From: an uncultured Pseudobdellovibrionaceae bacterium
GTDB taxonomy: Bacteria; Bdellovibrionota_B; Oligoflexia; Oligoflexales; Bog-1112
Length of the DNA stretch: 64,000 nucleotides
NCBI GenBank assembly: GCA_964611335.1
Contig: CAZSXR010000001.1
Location: 828,818 to 892,817 of the forward strand
Reading direction: 5' to 3'
Under the pieces are notes generated by a model. It was not told where the DNA came from, did not search any database, and saw only the letters and a list, made by a program, of their open reading frames with translations. Shown one piece after another: positions 16,638 to 29,550 of this stretch; within the stretch, counting starts at the first letter, position 1, and each line of letters begins with the position of its first letter. The position numbers and the translations under genes are program-made.

Positions 16638-17411
16638 ATGCGTAAATCGTTTTCTGGTATTCTGTTTGCATTTTTGACTTTCTATGCAGAAATGTCTTTT
16701 TGTCAAAATAAAATATCTATCACAGGGATTCTCAATGCTATGGAAGAAGGCATCTCCGATTCCTATTACATGAAAGATGTTTTAGAAAAGATTTCAGTTA
16801 AAACCAAAGAATTTTATATTGAAAATGATATACATACTTCCGAACAAGAATATGCATTTCTTCTTACAGCTGCTAGTTTTGAAGTTTTATTTGAAGTAGT
16901 AAGAGATGCAGCGCTCGAAGCTTCAACCATAGCGGAATACACATCCCTTTCACGAAATCAGCTCTCTCTTTTAAGAAGGGAAATTATTAAAGAAGCACAG
17001 TCTAATCCCTTTCAATTCGCGAGAGAAACAAGATGCTTCAAGCAGGAACCAGATATCTACTACAGAGTTAAAAATATTATCAAAGAAAATATTTATGCCG
17101 CACTTTACCGTGATGTATATTGCAAAATTTTAGCAGAGCTTATAGAAAAAAAGGATGAAATTCCCTTTCCGCGTCTTGCAAAAACTGTTTATAAAATGGC
17201 GGAAATAGAAAGTTTCAACAGTTTCTTGTTGCTTACGAAATCGATATTAAGACTTGCTTATGATGAAGCGATGAAATTTCAAGCGAATGCCGTTATGGCA
17301 AATCCCTTTTTTATCGAATCTTTTGTAAAGGAGTACAGACATTCGAAATTTGAAAACCAAATTCCCAGCCTCAATCTCTACTTAACGCCATGGAAGTGTG
17401 CTTCAAACTAA
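16638..17411 (+). CDS. Hypothetical exported helical protein
   Basis: AAGGAG SD 6 nt upstream. Signal peptide MRKSFSGILFAFLTFYAEMSFC; no known motif. Confidence 0.45.
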   Translation: MRKSFSGILFAFLTFYAEMSFCQNKISITGILNAMEEGISDSYYMKDVLEKISVKTKEFYIENDIHTSEQEYAFLLTAASFEVLFEVVRDAALEASTIAEYTSLSRNQLSLLRREIIKEAQSNPFQFARETRCFKQEPDIYYRVKNIIKENIYAALYRDVYCKILAELIEKKDEIPFPRLAKTVYKMAEIESFNSFLLLTKSILRLAYDEAMKFQANAVMANPFFIESFVKEYRHSKFENQIPSLNLYLTPWKCASN

Positions 17412-18688
17412 AAATGAAAAAGGTGATTTAGGTTATTAAATGCATGATTTGCATGATGATCCAGTCCTAAGCCATCATGAATATTTGCAGTCAGATCTAA
17501 ATGATGACCGGCTATATCGGCTCCATGATGAAAGCCTGAACTGACAGCATCTGTCCAATGTCCAACATGACTTCCTATACTGTGCGTAGTATCCACCCAC
17601 AAACTTGCATGATGTGTTCCGTCATCTGAAGTTTCCTGGGAACTCATGCTATCATTTCCCGAAATAGAAGAAGTAGTATCAGGAGTTGTAGAACTCATAT
17701 AGTGGTTCAAAGTTGAATCTTGCGTTGAATTTGAACCTGTTAAAGTCAATCCATTACTAGGACCCGTTGCATTCATACAAACAGAAATAACAGGCAAATA
17801 AACAATAAGTGGCTTTCCTGAATTGAGTGCAACAGCTGTGTCTGGAGGTACGGGAGAAGGTGTTAAACAATTTGGATCTGCAGCCACTACCGTAGGGGTT
17901 GGAGAAGATGTAGGTGGTGTCGTATCAGGTATCGGAGTCGGTGGACTTACAAGAGTTGGAGGAGAAATAGGTTCAGGTTCAGAAGTGGGCGTAGGTGTAA
18001 GTGTAGGTGTTGTAGGTGTCTCAGAGCTTGTAGGAGTAGTACTAGGTGTTGGAGATTGCGCAGATACAGGTGTCTCTGGAGTATGAATAATAGGTGTCGA
18101 AATAACATCATGGTGAAATACAGTCGGCTCTTGTTGTGCCACCAAGATTTCCTTAGGAGTAGGATTGATAGCATCCACCTGTTGCACAACAGGGGAACTA
18201 GAAGCTAACGCCATTCCACCTCCGTTGTTTACTCCAGGAAAAGAGTGAGAATCTACAGGGTGATTGAGGTGAACAATAGGTGTAAGTCTGTGAGTTGTAT
18301 CCAGTGTAGGGAGACCGGAATCAACATGTGTAGACGCAGTCATGCGGTCCGTGTTTAGCTCAGTAAAATTCTTAACTTCTATAGAAGTCGAATGGAAAGC
18401 AACAGGAGCACTAACATTTACAGGAGCACCACGAATTTCTCCGCCTTCTGTCAGTGGTCTCCTTTCAACGATATCTTCTTTGTTCATAACACCGAGTACA
18501 GGATCACCCTCTGTGGGTTGTATATGGATTCTTTCAAATACCTTCGATTTGATGTCGCCTACTTCACTCTTTTTCTGCATGCTCATCATCTCAGATAACT
18601 TTTCAATCTGCTCATCAGAACTGCCTTCTTTGGTGTTGATAGGCTTTGTTTCGTCCATCATTTTTGCAATTTTTTCAGTCAGTTTCAT
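17408..18688 (-). CDS. Hypothetical leaderless low-complexity protein (Pro/Thr/Ser-rich core, His-rich C-terminal tail)
   Basis: 426-aa ORF with no signal peptide (MKLTEKIAKMMDETKP...). It has a PT-rich block TPTSSETPTTPTLTPTPTSEPEPISPPTLVSPPTPIPDTTPPTSSPTPT. The last ~75 aa contain many His (...GHHLDLTANIHDGLGLDHHANHAFNNLNHLFHF). Confidence 0.5.
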   Translation of the reverse strand: MKLTEKIAKMMDETKPINTKEGSSDEQIEKLSEMMSMQKKSEVGDIKSKVFERIHIQPTEGDPVLGVMNKEDIVERRPLTEGGEIRGAPVNVSAPVAFHSTSIEVKNFTELNTDRMTASTHVDSGLPTLDTTHRLTPIVHLNHPVDSHSFPGVNNGGGMALASSSPVVQQVDAINPTPKEILVAQQEPTVFHHDVISTPIIHTPETPVSAQSPTPSTTPTSSETPTTPTLTPTPTSEPEPISPPTLVSPPTPIPDTTPPTSSPTPTVVAADPNCLTPSPVPPDTAVALNSGKPLIVYLPVISVCMNATGPSNGLTLTGSNSTQDSTLNHYMSSTTPDTTSSISGNDSMSSQETSDDGTHHASLWVDTTHSIGSHVGHWTDAVSSGFHHGADIAGHHLDLTANIHDGLGLDHHANHAFNNLNHLFHF

Positions 18689-19068
18689 CTACTGATCCTA
18701 AAGATCGAAAGCCAAAACACACCACCGCATGAACGAAAGAATACAGAAATTGTTCCGACTCTCTTTCTTATATTGGTTTGAGATTTACTCAGGAGGCTCA
18801 TCGGAATTCGAGGGCTAAACTTTTGAAAATTTTATAGTAATGAAAATTATCAAGAATATAAGTATAAAATCATGTGGTTATATAAATTAAAAATGCAAAA
18901 AAAATCTTTCATTAGATCTAAAAAGCAGCTTGTTTTGAAAGTCTAGTCTAGGCCTAAGTTCTTAATTTTTCCAGTAAAGTACCGAAGACAGTGGAAGCGG
19001 AGTTTAACCATTTTAAGAATGTTGTGCTTATGTGGGTAAATTTAAATTTTCACTTAGTGAAAACGAAG

Positions 19069-20376
19069 ATGACTAAATATTTATTTCTATTCTTTTATTT
19101 TTCACTAACTGCTCAAGCAGTTTTGCTTCCTGAACAGGATGGGCGATCTAAATTTCTTTATAGAATTTTAAGAGCAGCTCACTTTAGTTCAGAGCATCTT
19201 GCGGATGAGATGGAAGTTGAAGCTGCCTATGCAGATAGGGAAGCAGCAAAAGGTTCAAATTCTTTTCAATTTTACAATAATACTTCAGCTGCAGAAGCTT
19301 ATCTTTTTACTCAGAATGGTGGTTGGTATCCTGAACTGAGTTCCTTCTTTGAGCTTAGAAAGAATTTATGGGGGCGTTCTTTGGACGCCCAGGTGAAATT
19401 GAAAGGTGCGGAACTTGCTGAACGCAAAGTCCTTTCGGAATCTGCAGAAAGCGCTTTGCTTCGAAGATTTTCTTTACTGTATATAGACTGGATTTACGCA
19501 GCTGAGACTGCAGATATTTTTGCAAAGCAAGTAGATGTTTTGAAAAAAATTACAGAATTGAGTGGAAAACGTTATGCAAAAGGTGATGATACTAAACTCA
19601 CTATGCAACAGGTGAAGATTCGACTTGTCAATGCTGAAACTCAAAAAACACAAACGCAAATGCGAGCAAAGTCTATTGCGCAACGAATTGAATTGGAATC
19701 ACGTGATCGAGTTAACGAACGAGCAGATTCCAAAGCCGTAGCAAGTATATTCGCATCTCTGTTGAAAAATGAAGTTGGAGAAAAAGAAGCTCTTGCCAAT
19801 CGTGTTCGAGAAGCACGCTTGAATACAGCAGATGCAAATGTGCAATCCGCAGATGATAATTGGGGACCTCGTCTGGACTTTATTGCAAGAGCAGGAGCGA
19901 CAAATTATACGACCTCGAACAGTTTTGCCTACTCGGGTAAAAATTTAGTTCCTGAGGTGGATATAGGTTTAGAACTGAATATACCCATTTATGATAGCCA
20001 TACTCATAACCATGCTTTGAGGTCTGCTTTGCTCAGACGCAATGCTGTCGAAGAACGCAACAAAGCGGAAAGTCTAAGCAACCAAGAACAGATCATCGAG
20101 TGGGAGTCGAATAAAAAATTGGGTGAACTTTCAGAAAAAAATTATGAAGAGATCGGAACTGTCGCAGTTGCTCGGAGGCAGGCTTTAGAGAAACAGTTTG
20201 CGATGGGAATGATTACACTCTTTGACCTTCTCAACGCTACAGAAGATGTTTTGATATATGAAAAACAGCGCATTTTTGATGCGCAACAGAGGCTTCAATC
20301 GTATGTGGAGTTAGCATTTTCGAAAAATCGATTGACGATTGATTCTTTGAAGAAAGTTCAAGAGGCTTCGAAATGA
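19069..20376 (+). CDS. TolC-like outer membrane efflux/secretion protein (OMF)
   Basis: I moved the start to ATG 19069, giving the signal peptide MTKYLFLFFYFSLTAQA. Two long helical repeats and beta segments fit the outer membrane efflux protein family. Its stop overlaps the next start in ATGA. Confidence 0.75.
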   Translation: MTKYLFLFFYFSLTAQAVLLPEQDGRSKFLYRILRAAHFSSEHLADEMEVEAAYADREAAKGSNSFQFYNNTSAAEAYLFTQNGGWYPELSSFFELRKNLWGRSLDAQVKLKGAELAERKVLSESAESALLRRFSLLYIDWIYAAETADIFAKQVDVLKKITELSGKRYAKGDDTKLTMQQVKIRLVNAETQKTQTQMRAKSIAQRIELESRDRVNERADSKAVASIFASLLKNEVGEKEALANRVREARLNTADANVQSADDNWGPRLDFIARAGATNYTTSNSFAYSGKNLVPEVDIGLELNIPIYDSHTHNHALRSALLRRNAVEERNKAESLSNQEQIIEWESNKKLGELSEKNYEEIGTVAVARRQALEKQFAMGMITLFDLLNATEDVLIYEKQRIFDAQQRLQSYVELAFSKNRLTIDSLKKVQEASK

Positions 20377-22094
20377 GCGAAATGAAACAAAATAAAGTTC
20401 TAACAGAGAATGCAAAAGAGCACGTAGTTGAAAAAGTCTCTCTGAGAAGTGCTCTGAAATCCTCACCGTCGAGTGTGGTGGACATAGTTCTCGGAACTCT
20501 TATTCTGAATATTTTAGCTTTGGCGCTCCCTCTTACATTGATGCAGGTCTATGATCGTATTATTGCGCAGCATGCAACTGAAACTTTATTTGTTCTCTCG
20601 TCTTCTTGTGCTTTGGCCGTAGTCTTTGAAACCATTGTCCATGTTTCCAGAGATCGTATTGCAAGTTGGTGCGGCTCTCGCTTCGAGTTCAATGGAATTA
20701 TGAAGGGCTTTGAGATGCTTCTTCACTCTCCTATATTTCGATTGGAGCAAGAACGTACTATAGAAAGATTAGAGCAGATGGAATCTTTTTCTGCGTTGAA
20801 ATCCACTTATTTTCTTAGAGCAATTCAAAATTTTATAGACATCCCCTTCGCATTCATCAACCTCTTTCTTGTCTATTATTTGCTTCCGAGAGTGGGGCTG
20901 TATCTCTCTTGTCTTGTGGTAATTATTTTAGTTTTTCATTTTATTCTTTTTGTTCTTTCTTATTTTTATCAGAAAAAAGAGCATTCCACGCATAGAAATC
21001 GAGACAAAAAAATTATTGAAACTTTTCGCCTCATAAATATGATTCGTTCTCTTTCAATGGAAGAAGCCATACTGCGTCGCATAGAAAAAGTTCAGGAGAA
21101 ATTTGCAAATTTACATTTAAAATCTATAGGGTTTGCTTCTCTCTCTTCGAGCTTTTTGCAAGCCGTACCTCAAGTTGCCATCTTCATAGTTCTTCTTGTT
21201 GGCTCTGAAGGGGTGCTTTCTCACAAGATCTCTATAGGTGTACTTACAACAGCGATGATGTTAGCGGGTCGATGTGTGTCCCCTGTTATAAGTTTGGTGT
21301 CAGGCTGGTTGCATTTTGAGGAAAAGAATATACAGGAGCGTAATGTTAATGAGTTACTTTCTATGGAAGAAGATCCATGGACGAACGAAGAGATGGGTCC
21401 AAAGTTAAACGGTTCTATACGTTTAGAAAATATTAGTTTTACTTATAATCCTGAATCAGAAGCAATTTTGAAGAAAATTTCAGTTAATATTATTGAAAAA
21501 ACTCTGTGTTATGTTCAGACGGATTTCGATAGATCCGCGAGTGTATTTATAGATATTCTCAACAGAAATCTGGAAGCAACAGCAGGTCAGATTTATTTTG
21601 ATGACAAACCTTTGAAAGATATTTTTGTAAATGAATTTTACAGAGATGTACATGCCATTTACAAAACACCTACATTTTTTCGAGGAACGGTTCTTGAGAA
21701 TCTTGCTTCTTTCGATGTTGCTCGTTTTGATGATGCTATTCGCGTTTCTAAAGAGTTGGGGCTTGAAGATGTCATCGCAAAATTCGAATTGGGATACAGT
21801 TCCATCTTCGATAGAGAGAATCTTCTTTCCATATCTCAAAATCTGCTTATGCAAATGGCAATTGCACGAGCGGTTGTTAAAAGTCCTTCAATACTCCTCA
21901 CAAACGGTATTGAATCAGGTATGGATGTGGATACGAAAAAACTCTTTATAAAAGTTCTCCGCTTATTGAAAGGAAAATGTACGATTATCTGCGTTTCTAA
22001 CGATCCTGTGACAGCAAGCATCAGTGATCGTATTTTATACTTACGAGAAGGAATAATGATAGACGATAGGGAAGAAGCGTTTAATGCTACTTGA
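20373..22094 (+). CDS. ABC half-transporter 1 (PrtD-like TMD, fully degenerate NBD)
   Basis: The first TM region LPLTLMQVYDRII is PrtD/AprD-like. The NBD fold is recognisable (IRLENISFTY...), but the Walker A position reads IIEKTLCYVQTDFDRSAS, the signature is LSISQ, the Walker B position is ILLTNG and the H-loop position is VSND. Confidence 0.8.
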   Translation: MSEMKQNKVLTENAKEHVVEKVSLRSALKSSPSSVVDIVLGTLILNILALALPLTLMQVYDRIIAQHATETLFVLSSSCALAVVFETIVHVSRDRIASWCGSRFEFNGIMKGFEMLLHSPIFRLEQERTIERLEQMESFSALKSTYFLRAIQNFIDIPFAFINLFLVYYLLPRVGLYLSCLVVIILVFHFILFVLSYFYQKKEHSTHRNRDKKIIETFRLINMIRSLSMEEAILRRIEKVQEKFANLHLKSIGFASLSSSFLQAVPQVAIFIVLLVGSEGVLSHKISIGVLTTAMMLAGRCVSPVISLVSGWLHFEEKNIQERNVNELLSMEEDPWTNEEMGPKLNGSIRLENISFTYNPESEAILKKISVNIIEKTLCYVQTDFDRSASVFIDILNRNLEATAGQIYFDDKPLKDIFVNEFYRDVHAIYKTPTFFRGTVLENLASFDVARFDDAIRVSKELGLEDVIAKFELGYSSIFDRENLLSISQNLLMQMAIARAVVKSPSILLTNGIESGMDVDTKKLFIKVLRLLKGKCTIICVSNDPVTASISDRILYLREGIMIDDREEAFNAT

Positions 22095-24183
22095 CGAGCA
22101 AAAAGCACAGAAAGCCGATTATACAGCGCTCAGACGCTGCTTAGTCGTTCTTTTGCAATCCATCGGGTGGAATGGAGATGTGAAATTTTTGCGCGAATTT
22201 TTCGAGAAGCATGATACAATGGAAACGATTCTGAATGGTCTCAGTCATATGAATTATGTTGCAGAGCCACTCAGAACACGTCTTAACGAGCTCGACGACC
22301 GTCTTCTGCCTTGTTTGTTTACTCCTGATGAAGGTGAGCCCTTCGTCGTCTTGAAACATTTCAAGAAGAAAAATACTTATAAAATTTATGTAGGAAAACT
22401 GGACTCTCATCTTGAGATTTCTAGCTATCCCTCATGGGGGCAAGCGCTTCTTGTAAAAGATCCTAAAGAGCAGTCGACAACTCTTCATGATCCGCAACCG
22501 CTGTGGTTCAGAAAAGTTCTCATGCGTTTTAAGAAACATATTATATACGGACTTTTTATTTCCTTCTTGCTGACTCTTCTTTCTTTGTCGATGCCATTTT
22601 TTATCAATTTGATTTTTAAGAAGATAGCAACTGAGCAAATAACCGTCGATTTTACCATGATCTTCTACGGTCTCTTGATATATCTTGGGACATCCATTGT
22701 GCTGACTCTGATACGAAGTAGCGTGCAAACAATTATCAGTGTGCGTATGGGTTACTTGGTGATCAATGAAGTTATTCGACGCATATTATTTCTCCCTTCC
22801 TCCTACACTGAAACAGCTCCTATCAGCAGTCAACTTGCTAGGGTCAAAGACTTTGAATCGGTTAAAGAATTCTTCTCGGGACCAGCTATGACAGCTCTGT
22901 TGGATATGCCATTCGTTCTTATTCTTTTAGGAGGTCTTGCTTGGATTGATCCTATTCTCGCTTCTATTCCTCTTATTTCTATTATGGCTTTTACTCTGAT
23001 GACTATTTCCATCAAACAGGTTGTAAAAATTACAAACCTAACTGCTGCACAAACAACCAAAGAGATGCAGGAGTTTCTACTCGATGCTTTAACGAATTTA
23101 AAATCCATTCGAAATTTAGGATACACCGAGATATGGATTAAACGCTTCAGAGATCTTTCTTCGAGAGCGATTGTTGCAAGTCGCGAATCTGCCGATGTAA
23201 CAGGATTGATTATCAATCTTGCCCAGGGGATTACATCGGTTGCAGGACTTTTAACAATGACGGTAGGTGTGCATCGTATTTTTGCTGGTATTCTCCAACC
23301 AAGTGCTTTGATGGCTGCTATGCTTTTAACTTGGAGAATTTTAGCTCCGATGAAAACCGGTTTTAGCGTGTTTTCACAAATCGACCGATTGCGTCGAAGC
23401 ATTGAACAGATTGATCGCCTCATGTCTATTGAAATTGAAAAGCATGATTTCACATCACGAAAAAGTTTTTCAAAAATTGAGGGACGTTTGATTGTATCTC
23501 AAGTCTCTTTAAGATATGGAAGGGATACAAATCCCGTTTTACTCGGTGTCAGTTTTGATGCAAAACCTGGAGAAACGATTGCAATTCTTGGTCATGGTGG
23601 TGCTGGAAAATCAACGCTTATCAAATTGATCATGGCTATGTATGCACCTCAAACAGGTCAAGTTCTTATAGATGGAAAGAATACAAGACAGATTGATCCT
23701 ATGGAATTGCGAAGATCCATTGCATACATGCCTTCAAATATCAGCTTTCTATCTGGAACTCTGCGTAGTCAGATTCAAATGATCAACCCTCATGCAAGTT
23801 CAAAAAGCATAAGACGCGCATTGGAAAGAGTCGGTTTAGATTCGGAAATAAAATCGTTGGAGAAAGGTCTTAACACAAGAACCAATCAGGATAACCTACA
23901 CATACTTACAGCTTCCTTTATGAGACGTTTTTACTTTGCTCTCGTATTGATGAAAGAATCAGGTTTGTGGATTTTAGATAACCCTGCTTTGGATCTTGAA
24001 AGTCATCATGAAAATGAAATGAAAAAAATAATAGAAGAACATAAAGGCAAATCAACGATTCTCATCGCAGCTCAAGATCCAAATTATGCTTTGCTCGCAG
24101 ATAGAGTTTTGATTTTGAATAATGGTCGTTCTATAGGTTTTGCATCTCCTTCGGCTTTAGAATCTTCGAAACCACCTATATAG
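22084..24183 (+). CDS. ABC half-transporter 2 (N-terminal C39-like domain, TMD, NBD with intact Walker A only)
   Basis: The N-terminal ~135 aa resemble a C39 peptidase-like domain without the catalytic Cys/His (PFVVLKH). It has a six-TM region. Walker A is GHGGAGKST (23590-23616), Walker B is LWILDN (23965-23982, Glu->Asn) and the signature position is LTASF. Confidence 0.85.
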   Translation: MLLDEQKAQKADYTALRRCLVVLLQSIGWNGDVKFLREFFEKHDTMETILNGLSHMNYVAEPLRTRLNELDDRLLPCLFTPDEGEPFVVLKHFKKKNTYKIYVGKLDSHLEISSYPSWGQALLVKDPKEQSTTLHDPQPLWFRKVLMRFKKHIIYGLFISFLLTLLSLSMPFFINLIFKKIATEQITVDFTMIFYGLLIYLGTSIVLTLIRSSVQTIISVRMGYLVINEVIRRILFLPSSYTETAPISSQLARVKDFESVKEFFSGPAMTALLDMPFVLILLGGLAWIDPILASIPLISIMAFTLMTISIKQVVKITNLTAAQTTKEMQEFLLDALTNLKSIRNLGYTEIWIKRFRDLSSRAIVASRESADVTGLIINLAQGITSVAGLLTMTVGVHRIFAGILQPSALMAAMLLTWRILAPMKTGFSVFSQIDRLRRSIEQIDRLMSIEIEKHDFTSRKSFSKIEGRLIVSQVSLRYGRDTNPVLLGVSFDAKPGETIAILGHGGAGKSTLIKLIMAMYAPQTGQVLIDGKNTRQIDPMELRRSIAYMPSNISFLSGTLRSQIQMINPHASSKSIRRALERVGLDSEIKSLEKGLNTRTNQDNLHILTASFMRRFYFALVLMKESGLWILDNPALDLESHHENEMKKIIEEHKGKSTILIAAQDPNYALLADRVLILNNGRSIGFASPSALESSKPPI

Positions 24184-24201: not shown

Positions 24202-25182
24202 ATGATGAGGAAAAAAGCGAGACAAAAATGGTTGGGTGCAGCGAGCTTACTCGAAGAACAGTCGCATCTTCCGTGGGAGCGCACCTTGATTATTCTTGTC
24301 ATCGTTATAACCTTTGGCTTTATAGAGTGGGCTTCTCGTACTCCTGTAGATGAATTGGTCTCTGCAACAGGGGAATTGGTTCCTGAAAGTCATATCGTTA
24401 CAGTTCAAGCAGGTATTCCGGGAATAGTACAGGACATACTTGTAGGTGAAGGATCTGTCGTTAAAAAAGATCAAGTTCTTGTTAAACTCCAAATCGATGA
24501 CAACTTGGAAGACATCCGACGTTATAATATTCAAAGAAAAGGCTTAAAAAGCGAACTCTATTTTATCGAGAAAGAATTAAAAGCACGAAAAGAACTTGCA
24601 GATGAAGGTCTCTTTCCTTCTCTTTCCCTTTTACAACTTCAAGCAAAAAAATATGAAATACGGAATAAAATAGAAGAGTTGAATGAAACGTCGAAGTATC
24701 GTTTTGGAAGTGCACAACGTTCCATCATCGTAGCTCCAGTTTCAGGACAAATTCAAGAATTCCGAATTCCTCACAAACTTGCAAGTGTTCATGCAGGTGA
24801 AGCTCTGATGGAGATTGTTCCGCAAGCTGTTGATCAAATCGTATCATTGAAAGTTAAACCTTCCGACATCGGTCATATACATGTCGGGCAAGATGTGATC
24901 TTACGTGTAACAACTTTTGACCCTTCCCGTTATGGAGTCGTTGAAGGAAAGTTGACATATATTTCTCCCGCAACCATTGTCGGACGCGATGGCCTTCCTT
25001 ACTTTCAATGCAAGGTCCATTTGGGAAGACAATTCGTGACATCGTTAGTCACACGTAAACAGCATATTTTGAAAACAGGTATGATGGTCGATGCGGAAAT
25101 TAAAATCGGTTCCAAAACGGTCTTACAATACCTTCTCAAACCTGTTCTTGCAATCACTGCAGGTGCTCTGCATGAAAGATAA
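24202..25182 (+). CDS. HlyD-family periplasmic adaptor (membrane fusion protein), short form
   Basis: N-terminal TM anchor (LIILVIVITFGFIEW), lipoyl-like halves (GIVQDILVGEGSVVKKDQVL / VSGQIQEF), a short coiled coil, and the typical C-terminus KTVLQYLLKPVL...ALHER. It is 326 aa. Confidence 0.85.
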   Translation: MMRKKARQKWLGAASLLEEQSHLPWERTLIILVIVITFGFIEWASRTPVDELVSATGELVPESHIVTVQAGIPGIVQDILVGEGSVVKKDQVLVKLQIDDNLEDIRRYNIQRKGLKSELYFIEKELKARKELADEGLFPSLSLLQLQAKKYEIRNKIEELNETSKYRFGSAQRSIIVAPVSGQIQEFRIPHKLASVHAGEALMEIVPQAVDQIVSLKVKPSDIGHIHVGQDVILRVTTFDPSRYGVVEGKLTYISPATIVGRDGLPYFQCKVHLGRQFVTSLVTRKQHILKTGMMVDAEIKIGSKTVLQYLLKPVLAITAGALHER

Positions 25183-25869
25183 AAAAATCTTTCCCGGATA
25201 ATCCTTCCATAAACTGTTGATCAAAAGATCTTGAAGCAGCAAATTCCATTCCGGAAATAGAGTATATTCATTTCCGAACGTAGAGTTTTTCAAAGTTCGT
25301 TGACGTTGCGATGTCCAAATCAAATCTCCACTTTGAGTGTCTATAAGAAGTAAAATCAAACTCAGTGATCGTTTTGAATGCAAGAGTCCTCTGTCATTTT
25401 CTTTTTCTTCTTTTGCTAGATAAAGAAAGGGAATAAGCAAAGCATCCGTATGATGTGTATGAACACTGAAATCATCAAGCCAAGACAACCACTCTTTTTT
25501 CTTCTGAACATGCTCATCGTAAAATTCTGCTATGTTAGGCGTATCCTTATGAAGATTCCACGTGCTCAAAAGTGTACTCAGCAAAGGTTCTTTTTTTGCT
25601 TCTGCTAAAGCTTTGTCAACAGCTCGTGGGCTCAGTCCTCGCATGAAATTCTGCCCTCTAAAATTATCGAGAATATGAGCGTCCACACTAGCACAAAGCG
25701 TTGCTATATCGACAGTGTGCGGCCAAGAGCGGCATTTGAGAACCGCGGTGCGTGCGGGTATGTAAGAGCGATAGTTTGTTTGTATGCCCGACAGCAGCTC
25801 TGGGTGATAAGAGCTTGCGCAGGAATAAGATATAAATATGAGAAAGAAGAATACACGATTCATAATCAA
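25123..25869 (-). CDS. Hypothetical lipoprotein
   Basis: Signal/lipobox MIMNRVFFFLIFISYSC. No known motif. Its 3' end overlaps the HlyD gene by 60 nt (convergent). Confidence 0.45.
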   Translation of the reverse strand: MIMNRVFFFLIFISYSCASSYHPELLSGIQTNYRSYIPARTAVLKCRSWPHTVDIATLCASVDAHILDNFRGQNFMRGLSPRAVDKALAEAKKEPLLSTLLSTWNLHKDTPNIAEFYDEHVQKKKEWLSWLDDFSVHTHHTDALLIPFLYLAKEEKENDRGLLHSKRSLSLILLLIDTQSGDLIWTSQRQRTLKNSTFGNEYTLFPEWNLLLQDLLINSLWKDYPGKIFLSFMQSTCSDCKNRFEKVL

Positions 25870-27597: not shown

Positions 27598-29550
27598 ATG
27601 AGGAATCTTTTTGGAATATTGTCAATCGTAGGAATGGGTGTCTTTGCTTGTAGCAGAACCAGATCTACACCTAAACCTACTTCATCATCTGCGGATGCCG
27701 CAGCAGCAGCTGCAGCAGCAGGTGGGAATGTTGATCTTGCGTGTGGTCAGCTTGCAGTGACCGCAGCGAAGACTCCATCTTTTTCACTTGCTTCAAATTC
27801 AAGGGCTTTGTCTTTAATAGATCTCACGCCTGCAGATGTTTTTATGCAGGAAGCTGATAATTTTGTAGATGCTCAATTGAATCCTAATATTGTAGCAACG
27901 CCAAAAGGTTTAGGCTTGCAAGTTCAAGGTGAAATTGCTGTTCGTGATTACCAACTCAGTATACAAGGTGTGCCACTTTGTGGAAATGAACTGAGCATTT
28001 ATGGTCGACCTAATCAGGAACTTTGGATGAAAGGAAATGTGCCTTCTATTGAAGGTCTTGATTCAAGTGTTTTCGATAGTATTTCAAACTTGGAATTTCC
28101 TTCAGAATCTTTTGCAGTGTCCTCCGTTTATTCAAAATTGAATTTAAAAGGAGCTGTTTCAAAAGTAAAGACAACGAAGCAGTGTATTATTTTTGAAAAT
28201 GGATCTTTTATTCCTGCAAGAGAAATTTCTTTTACAGTCAATCGTAGACCTTACTATGGACTAGCAACCACTCAGGGTTACGGTCTTGTAGATAGCGACC
28301 CTGTGCGTGCTGCATCTCCTTCCTATTTGGAAGAAGTTTCTACATCAACGTCCACTTCTACAAATGTTGCAAATGGTTCTGCTGTAGGCACAGCCAGTGT
28401 GTCTTCCTTACAAGTGAATTCTCTCAATGGGAGTTCTCAAAATGTATATGTTACAAAAACTGTACAGCTTACAGGATTGAGTAATGGGGGATCTTTGTGT
28501 TCAGCCCCCTTTGTGCTGATTACACTGACGGGACCTTCTAGCGCTCCCGTTCTCAACCCTCCACCTTTTAGTACGAGTGAAAATTTTGTTTATCCCGATA
28601 AAACTTCCGGTTTTTATTCCGTCACAACGTTTTATAACGCGATGTCTCACGTTGATTGGCTTTTGAAAAACGGATACCTTTCCAACTGGCCAGGACCGCA
28701 AGTTCAAATTGTTTTGAATCTGATAGATTCAAATGGTGATGGGCAAAATTTGGGACGCAATAATATAGCGGTCTTCTTACCAAATGGAAACAGTCTTACA
28801 GATCCCCCACAAATTGAACTCGGTAATGGAGATGGAAAGTTACTTCAGAATCTTTGGTCTGATCCAGACGCTATTCAACACGAGACAGGTCACCATCTTG
28901 TCTATACACGTCTTACACAGATTTCAAATAAGATCTCTGTTGTCATTCATGAAGGTTACGCAGATAGTCAGGTTCTTTTGCAAAATCAAAGCCCTTGTTT
29001 GGGAACCACAATATGTCCAACAGGTGCAGCTGTGTGTATTTCAAATGCTTGTCTAAGATCCGCTGCTAATAACTTCACAATGGCTGCTCCTAATTGTCCA
29101 AGCGATGGGTCTGTAGGTCCTCCTCAATGTTTACCAACAGAAGTTCATCAACGATCACAGTTGATATCAGGATTAATGTGGGATATAGCGCAAGATATAG
29201 GACCCGCAAATGGTGGTTATGAAGCTGCATTGAAACTTCAAATGGATTCCATTCCCTATTTATCTTCGAGTAGTGAATACGGAGATTTGTTAGAAGCTCT
29301 CATAAAAGCAGATCAAGATCTTGGTGGAAGTCCAAGTGGAAAATACCAAGCACACTTAATAAAAGAAATGTGTGCTCGTGGTTTTGACAACGCAGCAAAC
29401 AGCACCAATGGGAAATCCTGGATGAGTCAGATCAGTGTTTCTTACACTTGTCCCGAAGGCAGTGGGGCAATACCCACAGGTGCTCTTCAGCCAGCTCCTT
29501 TGACAAGTGGAGCACTCAATATTCCTACCACTGTCACCGGTGGACAATAA
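27598..29550 (+). CDS. Exported zinc metalloprotease (gluzincin, thermolysin-like HExxH...E spacing), lipoprotein signal
   Basis: Signal/lipobox MRNLFGILSIVGMGVFAC. HETGH lies at 28879-28893, and a Glu in HEGYADS (28951-28953) falls exactly 20 residues after the second His, as in M4-type gluzincins. The remainder is unrecognised and includes polyAla and STSTSTS tracts. Confidence 0.6.
   Translation: MRNLFGILSIVGMGVFACSRTRSTPKPTSSSADAAAAAAAAGGNVDLACGQLAVTAAKTPSFSLASNSRALSLIDLTPADVFMQEADNFVDAQLNPNIVATPKGLGLQVQGEIAVRDYQLSIQGVPLCGNELSIYGRPNQELWMKGNVPSIEGLDSSVFDSISNLEFPSESFAVSSVYSKLNLKGAVSKVKTTKQCIIFENGSFIPAREISFTVNRRPYYGLATTQGYGLVDSDPVRAASPSYLEEVSTSTSTSTNVANGSAVGTASVSSLQVNSLNGSSQNVYVTKTVQLTGLSNGGSLCSAPFVLITLTGPSSAPVLNPPPFSTSENFVYPDKTSGFYSVTTFYNAMSHVDWLLKNGYLSNWPGPQVQIVLNLIDSNGDGQNLGRNNIAVFLPNGNSLTDPPQIELGNGDGKLLQNLWSDPDAIQHETGHHLVYTRLTQISNKISVVIHEGYADSQVLLQNQSPCLGTTICPTGAAVCISNACLRSAANNFTMAAPNCPSDGSVGPPQCLPTEVHQRSQLISGLMWDIAQDIGPANGGYEAALKLQMDSIPYLSSSSEYGDLLEALIKADQDLGGSPSGKYQAHLIKEMCARGFDNAANSTNGKSWMSQISVSYTCPEGSGAIPTGALQPAPLTSGALNIPTTVTGGQ

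Follow-up and report, generated by a model that had tools for sequence, protein, structure and literature searches.

The 64,000-nucleotide window analysed here, from an uncultured Pseudobdellovibrionaceae bacterium (contig CAZSXR010000001.1, positions 828,818 to 892,817), carries on its + strand a four-gene operon encoding, in order, a TolC-like outer-membrane factor (OMF), two HlyB-like ATP-binding cassette (ABC) half-transporters, here named ABC-1 and ABC-2, and a short HlyD-like adaptor, or membrane-fusion protein (MFP). We found that both composite ATP sites of the ABC-1/ABC-2 pair are degenerate, which overturns the original prediction for this stretch that the motif losses are exactly complementary and leave one site. 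Taken as a whole, the data are probably best explained by an obligate heterodimeric engine of the type I secretion system (T1SS) kind, with two degenerate sites, in which ATP binding would work as a switch and hydrolysis would be slight or absent. To our knowledge, one hydrolysing site is considered the minimum for an ABC exporter, and the asymmetric TAP, TmrAB, TM287/288, CFTR and Pdr5 all keep one. In the window pair both sites lack the catalytic Glu and the His, although one P-loop is conserved more strongly than any other part of its domain.

A T1SS-like operon with two HlyB-like half-transporters

The operon consists of the following genes.

18991-20376, + strand: TolC-like OMF, 461-aa open reading frame (ORF); Pfam OEP PF02321, E 6.9e-16
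20373-22094, + strand: ABC-1, HlyB-like half-transporter, 573 aa
22084-24183, + strand: ABC-2, HlyB-like half-transporter with an N-terminal C39-like domain (CLD), 699 aa
24202-25182, + strand: HlyD-type MFP, 326 aa; Pfam HlyD_3 and HlyD_D23

The OMF stop and the ABC-1 start overlap as ATGA, and the end of ABC-1 overlaps the start of ABC-2 by 11 nt. A HlyD-type MFP and a TolC-type OMF are encoded beside the ABC genes, as in a tripartite T1SS, and the OMF/ABC-1/ABC-2/MFP cassette is intact and syntenic in five further orthologous metagenomic loci; we refer to the window proteins and these orthologues as the window clade. The OMF scores 48.9 bits against TIGR01844, far under the cut-off of 225, and its true start is probably an internal Met ahead of the signal-peptide-like MTKYLFLFFYFSLTAQA. 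An OEP gene of 406-459 aa lies at the equivalent position in L002, L004, L005 and L007. The MFP falls just short of the type_I_hlyD model TIGR01843 (193 bits, cut-off 208.65), and the splitting of this match into three stretches suggests a much shortened alpha-helical hairpin. Its length is 322-327 aa throughout the clade and the sister loci described below (326-327 aa directly after ABC-2 in every orthologous locus) and 405 aa in a less derived operon, L088.

Both ABC proteins have a six-helix ABC_membrane transmembrane domain (TMD) followed by an ABC nucleotide-binding domain (NBD) fold. ABC-2 matches ABC_tran (PF00005) at 80.1 bits and ABC_membrane (PF00664) at 75.7 bits; for ABC-1 the ABC_membrane score is 59.5 bits and the ABC_tran score 25.7 bits against a cut-off of 25, with an alignment that skips the Walker A region. 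HlyB is the top PDB sequence match of both in HMMER (E 1e-43 for ABC-1, 6e-54 for ABC-2). It is also the top Foldseek match of the ABC-1 AlphaFold2 (AF2) model (pLDDT 91.3; 8dck_A, TM 0.82), and the ABC-2 model (pLDDT 83.6) matches 8dck_A with TM 0.85 over 695 columns, CLD included. The top NCBIfam model for each protein is TIGR03375 (LssB type), at 228.6 bits for ABC-1 and 341.3 bits for ABC-2 against a cut-off of 693.1, and the HlyB (TIGR01846) and PrtD (TIGR01842) models are below their cut-offs too. The C39-like domain, absent from ABC-1, spans about residues 1-125 of ABC-2 and matches the HlyB CLD in fold; Peptidase_C39 (PF03412) aligns to residues 9-98 with 17.1 bits, below the cut-off of 22 that would mark a PCAT.

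Both composite ATP sites are degenerate

Motif equivalences were taken from a residue-by-residue HMMER alignment of each ABC protein to HlyB (PDB 8dck). The positions in ABC-1 are as follows.

21519-21545, + strand: Walker A equivalent, TDFDRSASV, aa 383-391, opposite HlyB GRSGSGKST; no Gly-rich loop and no Lys
21831-21845, + strand: true signature position, ISQNL, aa 487-491, opposite LSGGQ
21891-21908, + strand: Walker B equivalent, ILLTNG opposite HlyB ILIFDE; Asp replaced by N511, catalytic Glu by G512
21915-21926, + strand: D-loop, SGMD; M517 and D518 invariant in the clade
21999-22001, + strand: H-loop position, N543 opposite HlyB H662; CVSND at 21990-22004

Those in ABC-2 are as follows.

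23515-23517, + strand: A-loop Tyr478
23590-23616, + strand: Walker A, GHGGAGKST, aa 503-511; the sole intact Walker A of the pair
23734-23736, + strand: Q-loop position, S551 for Gln; YMPSNI at 23725-23742
23905-23919, + strand: signature position, LTASF opposite LSGGQ; the AF2 helix begins at A610
23965-23982, + strand: Walker B, LWILDN; D632 retained, catalytic Glu replaced by N633
24073-24075, + strand: H-loop position, Q664 for HlyB H662; IAAQD at 24064-24078

Of the canonical NBD motifs (Walker A, Q-loop Gln, LSGGQ, Walker B Asp-Glu, H-loop His), ABC-1 has none of the five, with K431 in place of the Q-loop Gln, and ABC-2 keeps no more than Walker A and the Asp of Walker B. The HlyB alignments and AF2 models revealed no canonical motif elsewhere in either protein, in agreement with the original prediction, and all of the motif strings that it quoted translate where it had placed them; the longer ABC-1 Walker A-region string, IIEKTLCYVQTDFDRSAS(V), does so at 21489-21545. 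In the AF2 models of both proteins each motif lies at the expected strand/helix boundary. In ABC-2, residues 503-508 form a loop and 509-516 the helix after it, while in ABC-1 strand 378-383 is nearly continuous with a helix from 386, indicating that the ABC-1 P-loop has collapsed.

The ABC-1 signature had earlier been read as a partly LSGGQ-like LSISQ (21825-21839, aa 485-489). We found that this reading is a two-residue register slip that produced a chance resemblance. The register I487-L491 is agreed by HMMER alignment to HlyB and by three MAFFT alignments, and the AF2 signature helix begins at Q489. ISQNL lacks the key Gly at the fourth position. Together with the non-conserved signatures of the orthologues, this register rules out LSISQ as a preserved signature.

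The alignments bear out the earlier claim that the site combining the ABC-1 Walker A with the ABC-2 signature is lost on both sides. Site 1, made of the ABC-1 Walker A, Walker B, Q-loop and H-loop and the ABC-2 signature, has no nucleotide-binding element left in these alignments and is predicted to be dead. Site 2 is degenerate as well: as aligned, it keeps only cis elements of ABC-2 (Tyr478, GHGGAGKST and Asp632) and has lost the Q-loop Gln (to Ser, as had been suspected and as S551 now shows), the Walker B Glu (to Asn), the H-loop His (to Gln) and, in trans, the signature Gly in ABC-1 ISQNL. The earlier view that site 2 is preserved for nucleotide binding holds for the ABC-2 P-loop, which is strongly conserved, and fails for the ABC-1 signature, which is degenerate and not conserved.

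The pattern is conserved in orthologues

A word-indexed search identified orthologues of both proteins: five of ABC-2, with 61-69% identity, and six of ABC-1, with 45-56% identity. The degenerate pattern recurs in all five further ABC-2 and all six further ABC-1 proteins, and chance is not a concern. Counting the window, Walker A in the six ABC-2 proteins reads G[HN][GS]G[AS]GKS[TS] with G503, G506, G508, K509 and S510 invariant; the A-loop Y478 (6/6) and the Walker B Asp do not vary either. None of the six keeps the Gln of the Q-loop, the Glu of Walker B or the His of the H-loop: all have MP[SA] at the Q-loop and Gln at the H-loop, and the residue after the Walker B Asp is N, A, N, T, N and N. 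The ABC-2 A-loop/Walker A block has a mean pairwise identity of 83.6%, the maximum within the NBD (52-62% for the rest), and on this measure the ABC-2 P-loop is under strong selection.

The matching ABC-1 block is the least conserved part of that protein (33.5% identity; 40-58% for the rest). Its Walker A region is variable and lacks GxxGxGK in 7/7 clade members, and the ABC-1 orthologues read TSTSL, SSSSL, APASL, TPNSL, MSSSL and TSSSL at the true signature position (pattern x[SP]x[SN]L). The conserved parts of ABC-1 are the TMD, a Q-loop-proximal FFRGTxLENLASFD and the D-loop xxMD, indicating that the ABC-1 NBD is still constrained, though not at the ATP site.

The loss of many motifs together, and the fact that Pfam ABC_tran barely or not at all recognises the ABC-1 NBDs, could be read as random decay of T1SS remnants. 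The four genes are, however, full length in the window and four orthologous loci, with no stop or frameshift in the 20 genes compared. Values of dN (nonsynonymous divergence) range from 0.17 to 0.65 over the four genes and from 0.18 to 0.50 for the two ABC genes, and dS (synonymous divergence) is saturated (>2 or undefined) in every pair, so that omega is not quotable and we report dN and the absence of stops instead. The proteins remain 45-77% identical at saturated dS, and the loci, with pairwise identities of 44-77%, are not one recent clone. Intact reading frames and saturated dS with these dN values exclude pseudogenisation. Every orthologue also shows the same substitutions (Gln at the H-loop, MP[SA]) beside a retained Walker A, LDN and TQN extend to a sister subfamily, and the AF2 models are confident. 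Decay is therefore already largely refuted and very improbable, and the prediction that the ABC-2 substitutions form a conserved design shared by orthologues is upheld in the five further loci.

Scans of 185,579 GTDB representative genomes with ABC-2 and with the clade alignment found no clade member. With PccB and GlnRS as queries the best identities in these genomes are about 57-62%, spread over many phyla, and the lineage has no near relative among them.

ABC-1 and ABC-2 as a probable heterodimer

The ABC-1 and ABC-2 genes are adjacent in all window-clade loci. Natural fusions of the two were found in about 23 representative clusters (among them P0232, P0233, P0235, P0237-P0239 and P0249), 1257-1437 aa in length, with an ABC-1-like N-terminal half and an ABC-2-like C-terminal half that has a CLD-like region. 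The order of the halves is the gene order of the operon, and the fusions provide Rosetta-stone evidence for an ABC-1/ABC-2 heterodimer. Most of these 'full-length' bacterial T1SS-type ABC proteins have both Walker A motifs, both Asp-Glu pairs and both H-loops intact.

Motifs that would meet across the subunit interface co-vary at both sites. For site 1, the ABC-1 Walker A Lys was compared with the fourth-position Gly of the ABC-2 signature in the fusions (2 x 2 counts 9, 4; 1, 9; Fisher p = 0.0097, phylogeny ignored). For site 2, the ABC-2 Walker B Glu was compared with the fourth-position Gly of the ABC-1 signature in fused and operon pairs (20, 0; 3, 5; Fisher p = 0.00057, phylogeny ignored). 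An obligate heterodimer, as originally predicted, is well, though indirectly, supported by the gene overlap, the cassette conserved in five other loci, the fusions and the co-variation. Two separate homodimers, the default of HlyB, PrtD and PCAT1, have nothing specific in their favour: an ABC-1 homodimer would be without any P-loop, and the ABC-1-then-ABC-2 fusions, the cross-subunit co-variation, the 11-nt overlap and the constant adjacency in the window clade all speak for the mixed pair. We give separate homodimers hardly any probability.

Wider family and sister subfamily

The pair is part of a wider family of LssB/LapB-like exporters whose two halves are either separate genes or fused. 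The family was collected with phmmer, run exhaustively over 1.84 billion cluster representatives, among which the window clade forms a single 50%-identity cluster. Even members with all catalytic residues intact have signatures that differ from LSGGQ: their ABC-1 halves read LPxG[hydrophobic]xQR (LPxG[LIV]), and their ABC-2 halves L[PS]x[SG][FL]. The ABC-2 signature had been called destroyed; LTASF does lie opposite LSGGQ, but it follows the family norm. The same pattern in catalytically intact relatives argues against treating its loss as a special event. The Walker B Glu is missing in 47 of 154 ABC-2-like sequences (148 search representatives and six window-clade proteins).

The nearest outgroup is a sister subfamily with 32-36% identity, which includes Oligoflexus tunisiensis (Bdellovibrionota; L172) and two metagenomic loci (L173 and L174). 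LW[IL]LDN-PG and [AS]TQN are common to it and the window ABC-2 clade, indicating that the loss of catalytic residues is old and maintained. The sister ABC-2-like proteins have LW[IL]LD[NS] at Walker B and, at the H-loop, ATQN in L173 and L174 and ASKN in Oligoflexus. At the Q-loop position the sister subfamily has [ML]PE (Glu), and the wider family retains Gln. The ABC-1-like partners in the three sister loci have a degenerate Walker A, D[HR] at Walker B, an acidic H-loop and signatures without the fourth-position Gly (FPLSL, LPNSF and LPRTF). In two of the three sister ABC-2-like proteins (L172 and L173; P0246 and P0380) Walker A has lost its Lys and retains the Gly pattern (GHGGSGQTS and GHGGSGTSS); the genes are full length and lie in an intact cassette. 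The Oligoflexus locus comprises a divergent 920-aa gene without a Pfam match, an OMF, an ABC-1-like protein, a 440-aa ORF, an ABC-2-like protein and a 324-aa MFP.

The operon L088 shows the state with one degenerate site. Its ABC-1 has GKSSSGTST at Walker A, LDK at Walker B, N at the H-loop and the signature LSSGL, and its ABC-2 has every catalytic residue intact with the signature LSTSF. Compared across fusions, less derived operons and the window clade, the sequences fit a stepwise dismantling of the ATPase machinery, from two catalytically canonical sites to one and then to none.

Some relatives have an extra gene between the two ABC genes. In Oligoflexus this is the 440-aa ORF, which has no Pfam match (L172:8682-10004), and in L088 it encodes a 474-aa hemerythrin-domain protein (L088:8580-10004); the window clade has no such gene.

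The sister subfamily bears on a reading in which the ABC pair no longer transports and is instead a scaffold or nucleotide sensor. It might, for example, anchor the MFP/OMF channel and a surface-tethered protein in the inner membrane or be the platform on which they assemble, and its ATP occupancy would signal the energy state of the cell. Two degenerate sites would suit such a role, as would sister members without even the Walker A Lys. The TMDs (especially transmembrane helix 1 of ABC-1) and the FFRGTxLENLASFD coupling region are more conserved than the ATP-site residues, and the N-terminal module of a neighbouring candidate cargo protein, described below, recalls a retention domain by analogy. 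The full T1SS gene set is retained, however, along with a CLD-like substrate-docking domain, and conservation of the NBD-TMD coupling region suggests that conformational coupling still matters. The literature searched offered no precedent. We consider this reading quite unlikely.

ATP binding as a proposed switch

The original prediction that the remaining site binds ATP and hydrolyses it slowly is reasonable for the residues found at site 2; ATP binding without efficient hydrolysis would be its most likely behaviour. In the mechanism we propose, one MgATP at the ABC-2 P-loop would drive or stabilise NBD closure and the switch from inward to outward facing. Hydrolysis would be very slow or absent, and the transporter would be reset when the nucleotide leaves a dimer interface that has been weakened. 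Something else would have to give direction, such as folding of the exported protein outside the cell or its retention there. Three published observations fit the reading of binding as a switch. In TmrAB, ATP binding alone provides the power stroke and hydrolysis resets the transporter (PMC7205462). The catalytic dyad of HlyB is E631 and H662 (PMC8277102), and loss of the Walker B Glu is the hallmark of a non-hydrolysing site (PMC7756269, PMC7544095).

Several points weigh against this reading. ATP binding and non-hydrolysis are deduced from sequence, and the heterodimer is read from genes and sequences rather than seen directly; the co-variation statistics are phylogenetically uncorrected and the window clade is one 50%-identity cluster. 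The Walker A Lys losses in the sister subfamily point to nucleotide binding itself being possibly dispensable in part of the family. The role of the neighbouring 426-aa protein as exported cargo or surface fibre is a candidate assignment drawn from gene position. Finally, replacement of the H-loop His by Gln or Asn is tolerated in nucleotide-binding site 2 (NBS2) of ABCC1 with wild-type-like transport (PMC7756269), and substrate-assisted rather than general-base catalysis has been proposed for HlyB-type NBDs (PMC8277102), so that some turnover could persist.

This last point leads to the main rival, in which site 2 is a working, unorthodox ATPase that would use the H-loop Gln, the Walker B Asp, Mg-ATP, substrate assistance and perhaps another residue for normal multi-turnover export. 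That would make the pair a heterodimeric exporter of the ordinary kind, in which one site is degenerate and the other is a variant of the consensus. Besides the functional H-loop variants of ABCC1 NBS2 and the catalysis proposed for HlyB, the very conserved ABC-2 P-loop block and the presence of Gln664 in 6/6 orthologues favour such an ATPase, and the Q-loop Glu of the sister subfamily could coordinate Mg2+ or water. On the other side, the variation of the residue that replaces the Glu (N, A, N, T, N, N) argues against a substitute function at that position, the window-clade Q-loop residue is Ser or Ala, and the trans signature lacks the fourth-position Gly and differs among orthologues. No case shown to be active in the literature searched has lost as much as this one, in which Glu, His, Gln and the Gly of the signature are all gone. 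We regard a working ATPase as possible, though somewhat unlikely, and ATP binding as a switch remains the reading we prefer.

If the pair binds ATP but barely hydrolyses it, nature would have made an 'EQ/HA double mutant' and kept it in use. Fusions with two intact sites, operons with one and the window clade with none would in that case form a graded comparative series for setting binding-only protein export against hydrolysis.

Candidate cargo and neighbouring genes

Three further ORFs lie near the operon.

17408-18688, - strand: candidate cargo, 426 aa, divergent from the operon; no signal peptide, no Pfam family
25123-25869, - strand: lipoprotein-like ORF, 248 aa, N-terminus …FLIFISYSCAS
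27598-29550, + strand: 650-aa ORF; N-terminus like that of a signal peptide or lipoprotein, runs of Ala and of Ser/Thr, and 'HETGHH', which resembles HExxH

Searches of all three against Pfam and NCBIfam returned nothing significant. The candidate cargo has an N-terminal module of about 100 aa, a hypervariable middle rich in Pro, Thr, Ser, His and Asp, and a His-rich C-terminus ending ...NHLFHF; no RTX repeats were seen in it. Homologues lie at the same position in four of the five loci (L004:3-959(-), L005:2751-6284(-), L006:1-861(-) and L007:2-619(-)), and none does in L002/L003. Over 80-104 aa at the N-terminus they share 51-60% identity (E 1e-25 to 1e-29), with the pattern …DIKSKV[YF]E[KR][VI][HY]IQPxEGDPVLGV…ERR. 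The homologues also have in common a similar His-rich C-terminus ending in HF; that of L005, which is 1177 aa long, reads ...FHNHFNFHF.

A more specific and unlikely form of the proposed mechanism is a hydrolysis-deficient, possibly single-turnover T1SS engine in which the power stroke of one MgATP would thread this His/Pro/Thr-rich neighbour through the MFP/OMF duct. An ATP-driven reset would be unnecessary because the N-terminal module of the cargo would stay lodged in the apparatus, in a LapA-like mode of retention, or because folding or metal binding outside the cell would ratchet the chain outward. Were this so, the family would be an evolutionary series that separates the role of ATP binding from that of hydrolysis in ABC exporters.

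L002, L004 and L005 each carry the 248-aa ORF close to the cassette, conserved at 42-45% identity, and it may encode an accessory part of the system. The TTG annotated as its start lies in an overlap with the MFP 3' end, and its true start is probably further in. The 650-aa ORF, read by eye, may encode a secreted metalloprotease-like protein. An Rfam scan of the 64-kb window found no family at gathering score and no rRNA or tRNA matches. The G+C content of the window is about 36-44%.

Comparison with known systems

The closest characterised relative is the HlyB/HlyD/TolC system of E. coli (PDB 7SGR, 8DCK), HlyB being the top sequence and fold match for both ABC proteins. As in that system, a C39-like domain stands at the N-terminus of the transporter (in ABC-2), and the operon also encodes a HlyD-type adaptor and a TolC-like OMF. 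HlyB, however, is a homodimer with two canonical sites bearing E631 and H662, whereas the window pair has two different subunits and lacks both residues at each site. The window adaptor is also short (326 aa), and its candidate cargo differs from that of the HlyB system in showing no RTX repeats. LssB/LapB-type T1SS transporters are the top NCBIfam type for both proteins, but at 229 and 341 bits against 693.

The heterodimeric exporters TM287/288, TmrAB, TAP1/2, BmrCD, EfrCD and CFTR/ABCC resemble the window pair, which likewise has two non-identical half-transporters, and they are among its top fold matches. In both, one composite site is degenerate on both subunits, whose two sides co-vary. 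The degenerate site of the window is more extreme, with the entire ABC-1 P-loop gone as compared to a single residue. The known exporters also keep one canonical hydrolysing site, whereas the second site of the window pair is without the Glu, His, Gln and trans Gly. We found no report in the literature searched of a T1SS or ABC exporter without catalytic residues at both sites.

The MARTX T1SS of Vibrio (RtxB, RtxE, RtxD, TolC) is alike in gene content, having two ABC genes, an MFP and an OMF, and both of its ABC proteins are required for secretion (PMC3034196). Its genes stand in another order, rtxBDE, and its cargo, a very large RTX toxin, is different too. The literature searched did not describe degenerate motifs in RtxB or RtxE; the RtxB and RtxE motifs themselves were not examined.

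The sister subfamily (L172, L173 and L174) is similar in layout, with an OMF, an ABC-1-like protein, an ABC-2-like protein and an MFP of 322-324 aa in the same order and, in Oligoflexus, a large divergent upstream gene without a Pfam match. It differs from the window clade in its 32-36% identity, in a Q-loop Glu as opposed to Ser or Ala, in the loss of the Walker A Lys in two of three members and in the extra 440-aa gene of Oligoflexus. The operon points to a secretion system not yet characterised, whose candidate protein may be surface-bound or secreted, and Oligoflexus tunisiensis is the nearest named carrier of its sister subfamily.

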